Assembly: GCA_951406725.2 (NCBI GenBank)
Contig: OX597818.1
Coordinates: forward strand, 94,798,001 to 94,862,000
Direction of reading: 5' to 3'
Source of the DNA: Octopus vulgaris
Lineage: Eukaryota
DNA: 64,000 bases
The notes under the pieces: generated by a model
Told to the model about the DNA's origin: nothing
The model's input: only the letters and a program-made list of their open reading frames with translations
Databases searched by the model: none
Made by a program: the position numbers and the translations under genes
Shown: one piece after another, positions 2,600-62,306 of the stretch
Position numbering within the stretch: position 1 is the first letter of the stretch
Layout: each line of letters begins with the position of its first letter

Positions 2600-3675
2600 T
2601 GAATGCATATCCTCAATTCCTCTATCCTTATCTGCAACATTGATTCAGATTTTGAATCTCAATGTGTCAATGTGACATTTCTTCTTTCATCAAGAATACC
2701 TTCAATTGGTTGTGGACTCTACACTCTACCATGCTCAGGTCATCAACTACTCTATCCCACCCCTACTCTCAATGTGCACCTACAGACCAGATTCCGTTTC
2801 CCCCCCTTTCTACTTGTCCACTCTTCTATTGTATAACACATGTATCCATAACTTCTAAATACTACTCTCTGACTCTCACAACTGCTCTGATCTTCCTTAC
2901 ACCACTTCTTTAAGACAGATTCAAACCTTGGCAAGACCTCAGCTAATTATAAGTCCCATGGCACTTGTCCATACACAGTCAAGCACTTTTAAATGCATTC
3001 ACCTGTTATTTCTACAGTCATCACTGCTCTTAAGTCACAGTACCACCTCACACAAAGCTTCTGCTGCACATCTGTCAGTGTGATATACTGCATCATCTAC
3101 AATCTTTAGGGTACTTTTTACACAAGCAAATCAAACCATTGCTTTGCTATTCGCTTTTGCACACACATTCAGTTTCCTACTATATATCTCAGATCAACTC
3201 ATAACCACACACTTCAGTACAGCAGACCAATCTATGATCCACTTATCAGTCTATGACATCTCTACACACAACGGAGCCACACAGTCAAAGAAATATGAAA
3301 GGAACAATTCTTATTCAAACTTAGAACCCTGGCACTGGTGGGTTTGTATGAATCCCTTATCCATATATAAACCTGCCCACTGAACTGCCTTTCTACCATA
3401 ATCTTACCACCAATCCTACTCCTAATTTTACATACTCATCAACTTTAGAAATAAGTCTCCTTTCTTTCCCCTTTCACCCTCTTCCTTTCTTCCCTTGTCT
3501 ATTTCTATTCCCTTCTCTGGCTACCTACACCTTGTACTCTTCCCCCCCCCCCCCCACCATCTATTTTGCACTTAAATCTCCCCATCTGACATCTCTTTAT
3601 CCTATCCTATCCTTATACACAGAGTTCACAATCATGAAGCATCTCTGATGACACCTTTAATGAAACAACTGTGGC
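2600..3675 (+). mobile_element. Penelope-like retroelement remnant (GIY-YIG endonuclease plus pLTR end)
   Basis: 3056-3172 reads SFCCTSVSVIYCIIYNL*GTFYTSKSNHCFAIRFCTHI, resembling FTCTS.NVIYCI.C..C...YIG...RL..RF.EH. It is followed by THFSTADQS, a pyrimidine tract, and a decayed hammerhead-like core CTGATGA...GAAACAACTGT at 3645-3672. Confidence 0.7.
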
Positions 3676-3743: not shown

Positions 3744-4295
3744 GTGTGGTGTCCTTGTGCCTGGATTTATGGTTGAATAGGTAACTGTATAGTAATGTAA
3801 CCAATTTTCTATTGAACACTCTGTACTTTGTTATGCCATGTTTGTTTAGTGTAGTGTGTGTGAAAATAAACACAATGTTTATCGACCTTTAAGCTGAGTT
3901 TCTTTCACAAGCATGTTCAGATTGTGATTTAAAATCATTCTAGCTGTTAATCAGTAGTCTTATCTTTACTATTGTCTCTCTCACTCATTAGTTCATACCT
4001 CTTATTAGTTATCCTCATACTTTACAGCATCTTAAAACATTAATTTTGATACATTTGACCTTTTGTATTAGATTCACAGTCCTCAAGTGGCCAACCTCAT
4101 CATTATGAAACCTCTCATGCCATTTTCCCTATCAAAATGCAAAATATGTGAAGCTTTGAGACTTCATATAGCACCCTTAGCCATTGTATACTTCAGCACT
4201 ACTCTTAGTTACCAGTTTGCAACCTTGTGGGAACATATATCTCTATTCTAGTCTATTTTCTCTTAAATCTTGTTTATTTATGTCATTGTTGATAG

Positions 4296-5221
4296 ACTCT
4301 AGTGAAAGTAGTTTGGAAGATTTGAATGAACAAAGAACATTGGACAAATATGGAGAAGATCAAGCACCAGATCGGCCTCAACCTTCCGCTCCTCCATTAA
4401 ATTACTCGGATACAGCTTCAACACCATCTCCCAGTTTGGTTTCCAGGCCACATCGTAGAGCTCCAATGAGAGCAAAACCAATTGATCTACCTGAGGAATC
4501 ACCTACGTTCCATACCACCCCTCCATATCAGCCAGAGCAAACTTCAAAGAAAACAGGCATGAACAAACTTCACCGTCCCTTTGAAGTACCTGTTTTTAAT
4601 GACAGAGGCATTGGTTTGCCCAAATTGCAACCAGTAACTATGGTAGCTAGACCAAATGCCCAGTTTTCTCCACATCGCTTCAAAACAAGTTCTGATGTCC
4701 AAATCACTAATTATGCTTCCAACTTACCTTTCTTAAGATCAACACCAAGTCATAGTAAGCTAGGATTTAAAGATCTACATGAACTTCAACCTCAGTATTC
4801 CTATGATCAAATGAAATATTTCCCAGGTGGCCAAAATCAAAGACAACACTACATGCCATCTCCTCAATCTTCACCTGTGAACCCTCAGACTCGTTTTGAA
4901 CAGTTTTATGATAGATCCTCTGAGTATGCTGTTCCTCATTCAGTACCTATGTCACAGCCAGCAAGTATATATGGTAGTATTTCAATGCCATCTTTGTGTG
5001 ATATTGACCCTATGGTGCCAGTGTCATATGTCAGGGATCCCAGATATGCACATACTCAGTCCCACTTTTTAAACAGAAAACACAATACTCATTTAGCACC
5101 TGGTTGCAATCAAATGTCAGCGTCTGACTACAGTCTCCACAACATCTCAGATAATGTTGGTTTTGAAAACCTGTTCTCAACACCTATGTATGGAGCACCT
5201 CAAGCACATCGGAGATTTTAA
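4296..5221 (+). CDS. Large terminal coding exon (about 308 aa, Pro/Ser/Gln-rich, predicted disordered); probably an alternative 3' exon of CaMKII
   Basis: This is the only long non-repetitive ORF in the window. The acceptor ttgtttatttatgtcattgttgatag|AC is in phase 1. It reads (D)SSESSLEDLNEQRTLDK...GAPQAHRRF* with TAA at 5219-5221. AATAAA occurs downstream at 6255 and 6380. Confidence 0.75.
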
Positions 5222-6000
5222 CTCTGATACACTGATTTCTTATCGCTTGCTATCATCATCCTCACAACTAGCTTCTTTCTTCTGACTGATGTTCAAATGG
5301 TACAGTTAATCCTCAATGAATAGAAATAGACAGCAGACCTGCTTTTGGTTCCCAATTGGAACAGTTAGTGTTCTAATGATGCTAGAAGAGGCATCAAAGT
5401 CTCAACGTTGAATTTTTTCTTATCTTTACTAAGCAAAGCTTCAGTGAAAGATTACAGAACCAGTAGCATATCAGACAAAATATCTGTGTAGTGTTCAGTT
5501 TTGCCTTTTGATTTAATCAACTCTATGCAATGAGGGTTGATTAAATCAAACACACTATCCTCCAGTATTTCTGCTTTTGTGGCAAAATTAGAAATTATTA
5601 TTAGGATTATCTACTATAGAATCAAAGAAGCTACCAAGGAGCTGAGAAAGATACCAGAATCTAAAAGAACTAATGACCATCTGTGTTAACAGACCTCTGT
5701 TCAGTAAAGTTCACAAAATACCTGAAATCTTAGAATTCTCTTCTATCTATATCATCATAACATATTTTTAAACTTTATCCATGAGCTGATTCAGTATCAT
5801 TGTTTCAGTTCTCAAAGAGGGAAAAACTATTTTTAGAAAAATAGAAACAGTGTAGTTAAAATATGTTCCATCTCTAAAGGTGGGGTTAATAGTCCAAAAA
5901 ATTATGATCATATTAACTATAACTCAACTATGTCACTTAAACTTTGGATGGTATGCAGTCTTATTTCAGTCCCTGATAAACATCATCATCATTATTGTTC

Positions 6001-6004
<4 letters not shown>

Positions 6005-6073
<69 letters not shown>
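6005..6073. repeat. (TAT)n microsatellite
   Basis: Direct inspection. Confidence 0.95.
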
Positions 6074-6075
<2 letters not shown>

Positions 6076-9000
6076 TTTGGATGTTCATCAGGGCATCTAT
6101 TTTGATGTCTAAAAAGTGGCATGTTAAGAACTCTGTCTTACATACAACTTCATACAGTGCTCTGATATATCTCCATAGTAACAAGATCAATACTTATGTA
6201 GAATTAGAATTCATTCAACAACTATTTATCCATTTTCAAAGACAACCATTTAAAAATAAAAATCACACTCCCACATGCACACACTAAAATAATGACTATA
6301 ACAAGCTTGTATCCATACTTGAGTTAATTTATGTTGCTGTTGTCATTCTTCTAGTTAACAATGAATGCATTACCTGAGGAATAAAATCAACAAACTGATT
6401 TATAGTCTTGTGTAACTATGGATGCAGAGTTGTCATAAAAATTCAGGATGAGCCCCCATTGTTGCACTCTTTTATCCATCCTTTTATATTCTTTTACCTA
6501 ACAAGAACCTAGTTATTAACCTTGTGTAACCATTTATAAGTTCTTTATAATTGAAGTTCTTTTCTATTAATCATAGTTGCAGTGTTTTTCTTTTTTTTTT
6601 ATATTGGGTTTGTTTGCTTTTAAACAGAATATGGCACAAGCTTAATTACCCAAGATTTATGGGAGACTGTTTAGAAGTTTGAATTTAACCACTACATCCT
6701 ATACTACACTTACATATGCATGTGGAAATATATTAATATATGGCATGTTTGGCTAAATACATGACAAAGTCTATTGACCAGTTTAATGTTCAGCTCATCT
6801 GATTGTCTGATGTCTCTCACCAGGTCAAAATTGTAAACAGCTCAACATTAAAGTGGTTCATTGACTTTCCAGTTATGCATTCTAAAACATATGCAAAAAA
6901 GAATTTCATTCCTAATAAATCGTATTTTTGTGTTTGTGCGTGTATTTACATACATATATATATATATGCTTGCATATCAATCTATCTAATCTATCCACAC
7001 ACACACCCATATACATACACGCATACGCACACAAATATAGAAATAGAAATTTTTGCAAACGTTTACACTTGCAGAGAGAGAACAATTAACGACAGAGTTA
7101 AGTGAGATTGAACTCATATCTCATGGTTTATCTACAGAGTATTCTTCACTATTCATTCTCTTCTTATTGCTCCTAAATTTATACTTATGTATTTACATTT
7201 CAAAATCATTCATCAACAACTTTCAGTTTGGTTTCCTTAATATGAGCCATGGGAAAAGGAAATATTTTGCATTTAGTGTGGAGATAGCTTCTCGTCCACA
7301 AAGATGTACTGAAACAAATTGGTGAGGCATTTATGAATTGACTTAGATGACATATGAGTGTGTGTGTGTGGTCAGTCCCACCAACCACTACTGTTTATCA
7401 TTATACCTCTCTTTCTCCATCACTCTGTCCCTCTCTTTTATTATGATACCTGTGTAACAAAGGAAAGCCTCGGAAATGTGTTTAATACTTACTACTCCTT
7501 TGTGGATTATCATAATTTTCTCACCCTCATTTTGCAGTTCATTGACATCTCCCACTCACTCAGTCACTCTCTCTTACCATTGCTGATCTTTGCTGCTACC
7601 CATAAGTTGCTCTCTCACTTATGACCACCCATCTTTATTGCTATCCTTCAATCCTTCATTCTCCTTTATTCTACGTCATCCCCTGTCACTCTTTGTTGAC
7701 ATGCATCAATCTCCCTCTGTTTATCACATTGTCTCTTCTTAACATGGAGCTACCTGTCATGGTTTTCCATTACTCAATCACTTTGTTCTTACCACTCTGT
7801 CTCCTTTCATCACTCATTCTTATCCTCTTTTTTCTATTTACACTCTTGGTCATGTTTGCTCTGAGCAAACAGAGATAACTTGTCTTGCAAGAGACAAAGG
7901 AACCTCTTTAGTGCTGATTCCATGATAAAATATATCCAGTACACTCTGTAAAGTGCTTGGCAAATGAACAGAGATAATGTAGAGTGGAGAGGGCTCTTTG
8001 AACTTTCTGGAAAGCTGACAACCACCTAGTGCTGGTACCAAGTGAAAATGAATGCAGTGCATTCTGGAAAGTGATTGGTGTTGGAAAGGGCATCCAGCCA
8101 CAGAAACTGAATAAGCAAGGTGTGGTCCTGTAACCCATCTAGAAGCATACCTCCAAATTAGAACTGATATGGATCATGACAACCCATCAGATCTATGTCA
8201 GTTTGAAAATGTTGATGATATATACACACATCTATGGTGGACATTGTTGGTAGAGGTGGGAAACTCATGGTAAACCATGGGAAACTATGATTGTCACAGC
8301 TCCATTTTCCGTCCCTGTAATGCCATGACTGGGCTTGCAAATGGATTTATCATAGTGGGTATAGCCAAGAGATTTTGTATAAAATCCTGCTTGGCTTCCC
8401 CTTAAATTGTTCTCTTTCTCGCATACTTGTGTATTCATTGTATATTATTCTTACTTAGCATTTTGATACACACAAAGACATACATACTTGCACATGTGCA
8501 CACACATGTGTGTATAATATATATATATATGTAAGAGAATGACTGTGAAAAAATATTCAAGGGTGTTTGCTGCATGAAAATTTGTGAGTAAAGTGGACAC
8601 TAGCATCCTTGATATAGTAAGCCAAGAAATTTTAATTAATCAAAATTACAATCTCAGCCATGAGAATGATCGTTTTCCAAATGGCTAATTTCGGTCATAA
8701 AATGCCAGAGGAGAACAAGCAATGAATCTTAATTAATTAAAATTTTAATTAGATATGAAAAGGAATGGGAAGTGAACCTGATATAATATATATATATATA
8801 ACACAAAAGAAATTACTATATATGTAAAATATGTATGTATATATACACTCACATGCACAGGTGTTAAATCCTCTTTAAATAATATATAAACTGGAAGATT
8901 ACAATTTTTAACTCACAAACTATACAAGGTGTGTATAATTACTATTTGCTTCCTGAAACAAACCCATTTGTACAAAAAGGTAAATTAATCTGTAAACATA

Positions 9001-10641: not shown

Positions 10642-10894
10642 ATATATTATATTTACACATATATTTCTAAATTTCACTTCAATATGACATAAAATCTGTT
10701 TTCTATTTTGAATATCTATTTCCTCTGTAATTGAAATTGTTGTCTGCCATTGTTAACGAGATTTTCTTAATTATTATTTTCTGTTTTGTCATTAAAAAAA
10801 GGGGTGAAAGGTTAGTAACCTACATTTTTCCTTCTGCATGCCTGAGCTTGCTCTAAATAATACATACTGAAGCCAAAATATGGCATTAACTTTT

Positions 10895-20544: not shown

Positions 20545-20619
20545 GGAGTACACAACAGGTTAGTAACAATGGCCAGTCACAAGGAACACCACCTCCCACA
20601 CCCAGCTTTACTGCTGCAG
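20545..20619 (+). CDS. Candidate cassette exon (75 nt, phase 1-1): (G)STQQVSNNGQSQGTPPPTPSFTAA
   Basis: The acceptor is gttatgtttcatcccctag| and the donor is CAG|gtaatt. The length is a multiple of 3, the frame is open and the peptide is low-complexity and linker-like. Confidence 0.65.
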
Positions 20620-29839: not shown

Positions 29840-29941
29840 GTACCCCAACGGTGCAGACTGTTGCAGAAAGCAGTCCTAAACCTGCTGCCCTTGGCTCAGC
29901 AAGTTTATTTGTTGCTGCTGTTGCTTCAGCATCAGCCTCAG
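29840..29941 (+). CDS. Candidate cassette exon (102 nt, phase 1-1): (G)TPTVQTVAESSPKPAALGSASLFVAAVASASAS
   Basis: There is a branch-like ctaat, then the acceptor tggctcgtccctgctctag|, and the donor CAG|gtaaat. The exon is symmetric and open, and is a GC-richer island in AT-rich non-repeat DNA. Confidence 0.7.
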
Positions 29942-45083: not shown

Positions 45084-45185
45084 CTGCCTCCAGTGGAAGT
45101 TCAGGTAACAGTTCAGTGGGTGGCTCTTCTCAAACTATATTATCTGCTGAAAAACAATCTTCTCAACCAGGGGTCTTAGAGCCAG
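45084..45185 (+). CDS. Candidate cassette exon (102 nt, phase 1-1): (A)ASSGSSGNSSVGGSSQTILSAEKQSSQPGVLEP
   Basis: The acceptor is ccattttattgtcattactgtgtag| and the donor is CAG|gtatgt. The exon is symmetric and open, with a Ser/Gly-rich linker-like peptide. Confidence 0.7.
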
Positions 45186-54147: not shown

Positions 54148-55372
54148 TCAGGTCATTAAAAATTAAATGTCCAATTTTGAACTGAAAGTTTATTTTAATT
54201 TATCTCAGCAAAAAACAGTGCAGTTAATCAAAGTATGAACCTAAATTATCGACACAGTTTTGCCATTTTACCGGTAGCTTATTTATGCCAACAGCAAAGA
54301 ATTCTGGAGAGCAAGAGGTGATGAAATTACAAAAGGCTGCTTTTGTATTTTCTTCAGATTTGAAGTTTTTTCCTTGCAAAAAGTTGTCTGATGCCTGGAA
54401 AAAGTGATAGTCAATTGGTGCAAGGTCTGGTGAATATGGTGGATGACAGAATACTTCCAAATTCAGTTCTTGTAACCTGAGTAGCGTTCTTTGTGCAACA
54501 TGTGGTTGAGTATTGTCTTGCAAGAGAATTGGCTTGTTTCCATTGACCAATCTCGGTTGTTTAATTGCAAGCTCCCTCATCATTTCATCCAGTTGGTTGA
54601 TGTATACATCCACTGTAATTGACTTACCAGGTCTCATGAAGCTGTAGTGGATGACACCAGTGCTGGACCACCAAGCAAACACCATTAGCTTTTTTGGTGA
54701 ATATTCTTTTTTGGATTGTGTTTTGGCACTTCGCCGTTATCCAACCACCATGCAGAATCCATTTCTCAACACACGTAACAATACCATACAAAAATGGTTC
54801 GCTTTTATGCCATGAGAGCAAAGAACAGCAAGTTTCAAGATGACAAGTCATTTAATGCTCATTCAGTTGGTGTCGTACCCACTTGTCCAGCTTCTTTACC
54901 TTGCTGATTTGTTTCAGATGATCCAATACAATTGGAATTGAAACAGCAAACCTTGCTGCTAACTGACAAGTAGTTTGAGATGTATCCACTTCTACTACAG
55001 TTTCCAGCTCATCATTATCCACCTTGGTCTCAGGTCTACCATGGGGCTGATTTTCAAGAGTAAAGTCACCAGACTGGAACTTCTCAAACCATCAACGTAC
55101 AGTGCATTCATTGGCCACATCTTCACCAAACACTTCATTGATGTTTTGAGCTGTCTGGGATGCATTGGTTCCACAATGAAACTCATATTTGATCTATCCA
55201 TGGGTTCACAAAAACTGATTTACAAGAGAAAACTCACCATATAATCAGATATGGAAAATGATGTAACTCTTCAGTGTTGTAAAACAAAGAATTGTCAGGA
55301 TAAAACATTGTAGTTAACGATTGTCAAACTTGGTGCATAAGAAAATTGGACATTTCATTCTTAATGACCTGA
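54148..55372 (-). mobile_element. Mariner (Tc1/mariner, DD34D) DNA transposon, full length but decayed
   Basis: Imperfect TIRs of about 31 bp: tcaggtcattaaaaattaaatgtccaatttt (54148-54178) and aaaattggacatttcattcttaatgacctga (55342-55372), the latter followed by TA. The internal transposase frames carry LLQDN..PH and HPPYSPDLAPIDYHFF. Confidence 0.93.
54224..55201 (-). pseudogene. Frameshifted mariner transposase
   Basis: The C-terminal 153-aa frame (54224-54685) carries the YSPDLAP motif. An IVTCVEKWI segment lies in another frame (54624-54851) and the N-terminal part is broken. Confidence 0.88.
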
Positions 55373-59144: not shown

Positions 59145-59228
59145 GTCGTAGCTTGGTGGCAAAGAAAAACGATGGTATTAAAGAATCCACAGATAGCAGT
59201 GCTACACTGGAAGATGAAGACACTAAAA
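59145..59228 (+). CDS. CaMKII: CaMKII internal coding exon: conserved linker segment immediately N-terminal to the association (hub) domain
   Basis: The acceptor is ...tttcttttctctatttcag| and the donor is AAA|gtaatg. The exon is 84 nt, phase 1-1, and reads (G)RSLVAKKNDGIKESTDSSATLEDEDTK. It matches the CaMKII linker as I recall it (vertebrate alpha: [30 protein letters not shown]; delta: [28 protein letters not shown]). Confidence 0.93.
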
Positions 59229-61900: not shown

Positions 61901-62306
61901 TACTCTGTATCTCTGTTGTATAATCATAGCTGCAAACTACACTCTGAAGTTGTTGACACCTCCAAACTTTCTTGGATTTTATACAATATTCTGTTCCCAC
62001 TGTACACCACATTAGTCTTTTCCATAACATCATTCTCATAATATGAGAGTTGTGATAACATAATAACCACATTTAATTATAGCTATTTATTATTTCTCCT
62101 CCACAAAAATGTAGGTAAAATGGATAGTGAGAGTAAGTAGAAACTTAGTTTCTTTTATAATCCATAACTAAAATTTGTTATTTTTAATATATTGCTAGCT
62201 CATGTTTCTTTCTGACTCCATCTCAATGTTATGTTTAATGTGTGGCCTATATTCCTTGCTTGATTTATCTGGAGTTGTCTAAACATTCAGTTCATATTTT
62301 ATCAAT

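Follow-up and report, generated by a model that had tools for sequence, protein, structure and literature searches.

A candidate alternative last exon of the Octopus CaMKII gene, predicted to replace the hub with a new 308-residue tail

The ring built by the hub domain is regarded as the basis of the memory properties of CaMKII, and monomers of this kinase have been studied mainly as engineered or disease truncations. A stretch of 64,000 nucleotides of the Octopus vulgaris genome (contig OX597818.1, positions 94,798,001 to 94,862,000 of the forward strand; called the window below) raises the question of whether an octopus encodes such a form naturally. An earlier note on this DNA had proposed that a frame at 4296-5221 is a terminal exon which replaces the hub. 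The proposal is supported by the position and the phase of the frame and by an independent gene model from O. sinensis with the same junction. The frame is probably an alternative last exon within the Octopus CaMKII gene, which would give a hub-less kinase with a new tail.

The open frame and its signals

The following features define the candidate exon and its surroundings:

4294..4295, + strand: AG of a weak phase-1 3' splice site; same junction as in XP_036358779.1 (between INK and D)
4296..5221, + strand: coding part of the candidate alternative last exon, a 308-residue Pro/Ser-rich tail and TAA; gapless in 4/4 sequences, single match in the genome (G000)
4280..4282, + strand: ATG in the same frame, 5' of the acceptor, at which a rival 313-aa stand-alone model begins (XP_052823880.1 and P0121); T at -3
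5540..6919, + strand: candidate poly(A) hexamers, ATTAAA at 5540 and AATAAA at 6255, 6380 and 6914

The AG is followed by 926 nt that remain open until the TAA at 5219-5221. Frame 1 from 4296 contains many stops and the open frame begins at 4298, so that the exon would be of phase 1, with 307 whole codons and one split codon making up the tail. The phase-1 acceptor, the uninterrupted frame and the stop described in the earlier note are all observed. The frame is part of the longest ORF of the window (4181-5221, 346 codons from stop to stop), and the ORF list of the window holds no minus-strand ORF of 100 aa or more overlapping it. A length of 307 codons was reached in none of 2000 shuffles (maximum 188; analytic P ~3e-8). 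The tail is single-copy in the genome, with one protein match, and a DNA-level search with the exon gave a second match of only 67 nt, in the 3' flank; these copy numbers are lower bounds. Neither multiple copies nor a mobile-element domain, the marks of a transposon or retrocopy, were found, and the 308 residues have no Pfam match.

The matrix score of the acceptor is -0.9. Lower scores occur in 3 of the 23 mapped CaMKII acceptors, and of 1204 AGs in the neighbourhood 34% reach this score; the matrix is small, and a few of its boundaries were picked automatically. Such a weak acceptor suits a minor, regulated exon, but also a gene nested in the intron. The AATAAA signals to which the earlier note had pointed are present downstream of the stop, but they are no commoner than the background of one per 800 nt across the window, and the three copies therefore say little.

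Two inverted repeats capable of forming hairpins are located in the putative 3' UTR, one at 5507-5550 (18-nt arms, 94%, 8-nt loop), which overlaps the ATTAAA, and one at 6766-6868 (30-nt arms, 83%). The former adjoins the 67-nt stretch with the second genomic match and thus may be a repeat remnant. Upstream of the acceptor the frame stays open for 39 codons (4181-4295), which would happen by chance about one time in ten. An alternative phase-1 AG at 4195-4196 scores higher than that at 4294-4295 (9.9) and would add 33 hydrophobic residues; this extension has no Pfam match and is used by no model. A degenerate, stop-containing reading about 1 kb upstream of the candidate exon (~3050-3350, + strand) may resemble the GIY-YIG endonuclease of a Penelope-like retroelement, and a fragment of a mariner-type transposase is found at 54227-54736 on the minus strand (PF01359, E 7e-17; PF13358).

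Position within the CaMKII gene

A hub search of the genome located three CaMKII hub exons downstream on the + strand, and hub-exon sequence retrieved Octopus CaMKII proteins at 100% identity. Octopus CaMKII proteins were placed on the window together with 200 kb upstream and 70 kb downstream of it. The exons follow one another in the order kinase (residues 93-273), two regulatory exons, INK microexon, candidate exon, linker exons and hub. All kinase and regulatory exons for residues 93-315 lie upstream of 4296 on the + strand and match the genome at 100% except for boundary overhangs; exons for residues 1-92 were not found within the 200 kb upstream stretch. The exons on either side of the candidate, the first two in coordinates of the contig and the others in those of the window, are:

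G000:C5:94785046-94785088, + strand: last regulatory exon, ending ...ATRNFS, with a phase-1 donor at 94785088
G000:C5:94785898-94785906, + strand: 9-nt INK microexon; better of 2 candidates in 33 kb
10802..10810, + strand: 9-nt (G/R)VK linker microexon, which opens the route to the hub downstream of the candidate exon; sole candidate in 33 kb, in 29/35 O. sinensis isoforms compared
20545..20619, + strand: linker cassette exon (GSTQQ...); 100% match to O. sinensis isoforms
29840..29941, + strand: linker cassette exon (GTPTV...); from the mapping of CaMKII proteins
45084..45185, + strand: linker cassette exon (ASSGS...); from the same mapping
59145..59228, + strand: common linker exon (RSLVAKK...EDEDTK), which leads to the hub; from the same mapping
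62115..62132, + strand: 18-nt linker microexon (KMDSE); from the same mapping

The intron between the INK microexon and 4296 is 16.4 kb long, and the first hub exon begins 91 kb past the stop of the candidate exon. Four further linker exons (10802, 20545, 29840 and 45084) separate the candidate from that at 59145, and two more lie beyond the window, before the hub. No kinase exon occurs between 5221 and 59145 or anywhere downstream of the candidate exon in the mapped region. The exon mapping bears out the claimed placement on the same strand, upstream of the linker exon at 59145. Neither of the two findings that would have spoken against the proposal, a partner exon from another gene or a kinase exon in this interval, was made, though O. 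bimaculoides annotates the frame as a gene of its own. As expected of an alternative last exon, 4296-5221 combines an in-phase acceptor with a frame that ends in a stop, and further exons of the gene follow downstream. The predicted product is a variant from the CaMKII gene and not its canonical subunit; the gene has hub exons downstream.

The CaMKII linker comprises no fewer than three microexons (two of 9 nt and one of 18 nt) and six longer exons, all of them frame-preserving, and the public O. sinensis CaMKII isoform numbers reach X40. Two further variable regions were seen in the gene. Kinase residues 114-138 have two alternative 73-nt exons (SHCIQQ... and SHCMQQ...; L020 and L018), ~160.1 kb and 143.5 kb before the window, which are apparently mutually exclusive. 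An optional exon of 37 codons (AKYCH...ADNP; L031) is located inside the hub domain at window-equivalent positions 110526-110636; it is present in many Octopus isoforms and in Argonauta, and represents unusual splicing within the hub.

Relatives of the tail, rival readings and constraint

Three relatives of the tail were found in protein collections, making with the window four octopus-type sequences that are 85-97% identical. O. sinensis XP_036358779.1 (P0141; RefSeq CaMKII isoform X11, 626 aa) runs from the kinase through the 9-nt INK exon into the tail, with the junction exactly at 4296. It reads ...ATRNFS-INK-DSSESSLED... to the same stop, and its tail is identical to that of the window in 299 of 308 residues. 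The protein matches PF00069 (E 7e-78), while neither it nor the tail has a match to PF08332 (hub). It holds HRQET287 and GVILT306T307M, the equivalents of T286 and T305/306, and the calmodulin-binding helix. In O. bimaculoides, the same frame is annotated as a separate 313-aa 'osa-like' protein starting at the ATG at 4280 (XP_052823880.1, P0140), and UniProt A0A0L8GXN8 from this species likewise presents it as a separate 313-aa gene. P0121 is a 313-aa record, 85% identical to the tail. The window's own 313-aa form is absent from the protein collection.

No relatives beyond these four were found in the protein collections. A near-length protein search with the tail gave 2 of 221 candidates and HMMER over 1.84 billion representatives gave 1 match. 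A longer-length search gave none of 689 and missed XP_036358779.1, which is probably a cluster member rather than a representative. The best score in the ESM Atlas (0.80) was at noise level, and none of 298 candidate stretches of metagenome contigs was confirmed as a tail relative. As the searches were of protein collections, the absence of the tail in squid, cuttlefish and argonaut concerns the collections, not the genomes. Only XP_036358779.1 and a partial 326-aa record (P0132) are without hub among 118 kinase-bearing proteins, a set that was chosen by a hub query and so says nothing on the rarity of hub-less forms.

The conflicting records suggest another reading, in which the intron contains a nested single-exon gene on the same strand, with the ATG at 4280 as its start and a disordered orphan protein of 313 aa as its product, the join to CaMKII being rare read-through splicing or an annotation error. 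Besides the two O. bimaculoides entries, this reading has in its favor that the ATG and the residues MSLLI are kept in the 3 sequences showing this part, that P0121 also takes in bases upstream of the acceptor, and that the acceptor is weak. However, the five conserved codons coincide with the final 15 nt of the splice acceptor and would be constrained in either case, ORF callers pick the first ATG by default, and a T at -3 is a poor start context by consensus. Moreover, the frame fits the CaMKII phase (a 1-in-3 coincidence), and the O. sinensis model joins the two. INK is present in 27 of the 35 O. sinensis CaMKII isoforms compared, while the INK, VK, GSTQ and GTPT exons are absent from all 19 of those from O. 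bimaculoides. The O. bimaculoides annotation thus misses this region of the gene, and the joined O. sinensis model is weighted more. A model with a 9-nt microexon usually needs spliced-read support in the NCBI pipeline. Altogether, a nested gene is considered unlikely.

The four tails have 308 residues each, align without gaps and end at the same stop, with 247 of 308 columns invariant and 61 variable. At least 65 amino-acid changes among them have produced no stop (neutral P 0.02-0.03, the absence of indels not yet taken into account), in a test that is biased because protein databases hold open frames only. Between O. sinensis and O. bimaculoides the tail has 24 differences, where 49.8 would be expected at 7.6% neutral divergence (0 of 3000 simulations gave 24 or fewer), the yardstick being genome-wide divergence as a proxy in place of dN/dS. 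The whole-genome similarity of O. vulgaris, the sister of O. sinensis, to O. bimaculoides is given as 92.4% in the excerpted text of PMC6472339, and excerpts of two other papers date the split of the two at ~34 million years or, in another estimate, 13-34 (PMC10700109; PMC13282606). As the differences are about half of the neutral expectation, the frame is, judging from the compared sequences, under moderate purifying selection; this constraint is marginal if the neutral divergence is 5%, at which 33.4 differences would be expected (P 0.047). The excess of conservative substitutions over the neutral expectation is not clear-cut (P 0.06-0.11). The first 56 residues have 6 variable columns of 56 compared with 55 of 252 in the rest, which is not significant (P 0.065).

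The exon might also be spliced at a low level and yield a protein with no selected function, being either a young or decaying exon or part of an intronic poly(A) route whose sole effect is to reduce the amount of full-length CaMKII made. Relative to the other alternative exons of the gene, the tail evolves far more quickly (23 of 308 residues compared with 0 of 158 in relation to O. bimaculoides, P 6.5e-5), its motifs are unenriched, its homologs in the protein collections are limited to four near relatives, and it is found in 1 of the 35 O. sinensis and none of the 19 O. bimaculoides isoforms compared. The lack of stops and indels and the halved number of changes argue against such a reading, and attenuation alone needs no frame of 308 codons, so that it appears very improbable. 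Least likely is that the frame is an internal cassette, with a donor inside it leading to a very long linker and a protein whose C-terminus is still the hub: phase-1 cassette exons are clustered in the region and frame-preserving GTs follow 4307 (score 5.9), 4754 (3.6) and 4964 (5.8), real donors scoring 2.1-12.3 on a matrix from 22 sites, a few of them mis-picked, but conservation and the stop position run past all three GTs in 4/4 sequences, and a tail-hub join occurs in none of the 117 other kinase-bearing proteins as far as checked.

The predicted product and its counterparts

With 4296-5221 taken as an alternative last exon, the route to the hub-less product can be described in some detail. 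The transcript, known only as the O. sinensis automatic model, would run from the regulatory exon to the 9-nt INK microexon and across the 16.4-kb intron to 4296. Choice of the weak acceptor would presumably lead to polyadenylation within the intron, ~120 kb before the normal end of the gene. The product, 626 residues long, would be a kinase gated by Ca2+/calmodulin that has no hub and ends in a tail which is probably disordered. Its catalytic domain, Thr287 (the equivalent of T286), Thr306/307 and the complete calmodulin-binding segment would all be retained. Judged by engineered CaMKII without a hub, the protein would be unable to build 12-mers or to enter existing ones, and its autophosphorylation at Thr287 would be poor when the concentration is low; the assembly into 12-14-mers with phosphorylation between subunits that typifies CaMKII is accordingly predicted to be absent. 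A kinase with these properties would track calcium, as CaMKI or CaMKIV do, instead of keeping a memory of it, and would have little autonomous activity. The tail would most likely be a tether that sets the location of the kinase, and its first 56 residues, the most invariant stretch, would be the best candidate for a binding site.

Two motifs within the tail had been pointed out in the earlier note:

4382..4393, + strand: PSAP motif, tail residues 30-33, inside the invariant 11-residue block RPQPSAPPLNY; in 4/4 sequences
4676..4687, + strand: RFKT, the only RxxS/T site of the tail, unconserved; in 2/4 sequences, with HFKT and HFET in the other two

The Pro/Ser/Gln/Tyr-rich character noted earlier was confirmed by measurement (P 12.7%, S 12.3%, Q 6.8%, Y 4.9%). 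FoldIndex is -0.04 for the tail and 0.15 for the kinase; within the tail its lowest values are at the N-terminus, and it rises slightly above zero around residues 200-260. The ESM Atlas model has a mean pLDDT of 0.60. From composition, FoldIndex and this model, the 308-residue tail is probably disordered; a single-sequence AlphaFold prediction of XP_036358779.1 left the kinase unresolved too (mean pLDDT 34.8) and is uninformative on disorder.

The suggestion that short motifs scaffold the kinase finds little in the motif counts. SP/TP sites, which had been called many, number 9 where 6.8 are expected (P 0.21) and are not enriched. The RFKT site exists as described, but it is the single RxxS/T site where 3.3 are expected and is kept in just half of the sequences. 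P[S/T]AP motifs are ligands of TSG101/ESCRT-I, and the PSAP motif is indeed present and kept in all four sequences. Of 22 patterns screened, P[ST]AP was the only one present with a nominal P below 0.05 (shuffle P 0.043, uncorrected), but with 247 of 308 columns invariant, four given residues would all be kept ~41% of the time, so its conservation is weak evidence. PDZ-type ends, PPxY and NLS patterns are absent from the tail. ESCRT binding and condensation of the tail are possible, on the basis of one motif and the composition.

It is tempting to speculate, though with considerable doubt, that octopuses evolved the 308-codon last exon as a switch between a ring-shaped memory kinase and a hub-free kinase. 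The tail would then provide targeting or clustering, and might restore Thr287 trans-autophosphorylation by concentrating the monomers.

Older reports exist of truncated human beta and gamma CaMKII transcripts. Several known kinases resemble the octopus form in part, according to excerpts of the papers cited here. Mouse CaMKII-betaH and betaeH are likewise natural splice variants with impaired holoenzyme formation, but they retain a portion of the hub and can still bind that of alpha, whereas in the octopus form the hub would be wholly gone and 308 new residues added (PMC5882894). The authors of that paper describe splicing outside the linker as uncommon and betaH/betaeH as the first known mammalian variants without part of the hub. 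The engineered CaMKII-alpha 1-316 and 317stop and the patient variant R396stop have, like the octopus form, the kinase and the regulatory segment without a working hub; unlike it, they are artificial or pathological and tail-less (PMC12236485; PMC8506966). Mammalian hub-less constructs are monomeric, stay outside wild-type holoenzymes, fail to bind GluN2B and, at low concentration, show poor pT286 (PMC12236485; PMC8506966; PMC5882894). Alpha-KAP, too, comes from a CaMKII gene as an alternative product without one of the two main domains, but it is the mirror image, with the hub kept, the kinase gone and another promoter (PMC5882894; PMC9913510). CaMKI, CaMKIV and DCLK1 are monomeric and consist, as the octopus form would, of a kinase, an autoregulatory segment and a variable tail without hub (PMC10602587). 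However, they are separate genes, while the octopus form would combine the catalytic and regulatory core of a true CaMKII with an unrelated tail. CaMKI and CaMKIV, moreover, require phosphorylation of the activation loop by CaMKK.

The closest counterpart is the O. sinensis protein XP_036358779.1, which has the same architecture and junction as the octopus candidate and is named by its automatic model only as 'isoform X11'. Literature searches found no paper discussing it, nor did the literature covered, most subscription papers lying outside it, yield a description of the octopus isoform or of any natural CaMKII that lacks the hub completely and has a new tail. Hub-less isoforms do not appear in the excerpts of PMC11088445, PMC9120016 and PMC9318135, nor any of six truncation terms in bioRxiv 721589. 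It is likely that a natural hub-less isoform already sits, unremarked, in the automatic annotation of RefSeq.

Alternative last exons are a common mechanism, and the model is already in RefSeq. Nevertheless, if the reading is true, a conserved natural exchange of hub for tail, in an animal whose learning circuits evolved independently, would offer a natural test of whether plasticity needs the holoenzyme, and would show how an exon restricted to one lineage can reshape an ancient enzyme. Whether CaMKII monomers can potentiate synapses is still argued (PMC12236485, in the part consulted), and camkII marks the learning cells of the octopus vertical lobe (excerpt of bioRxiv 2022.01.24.477459).
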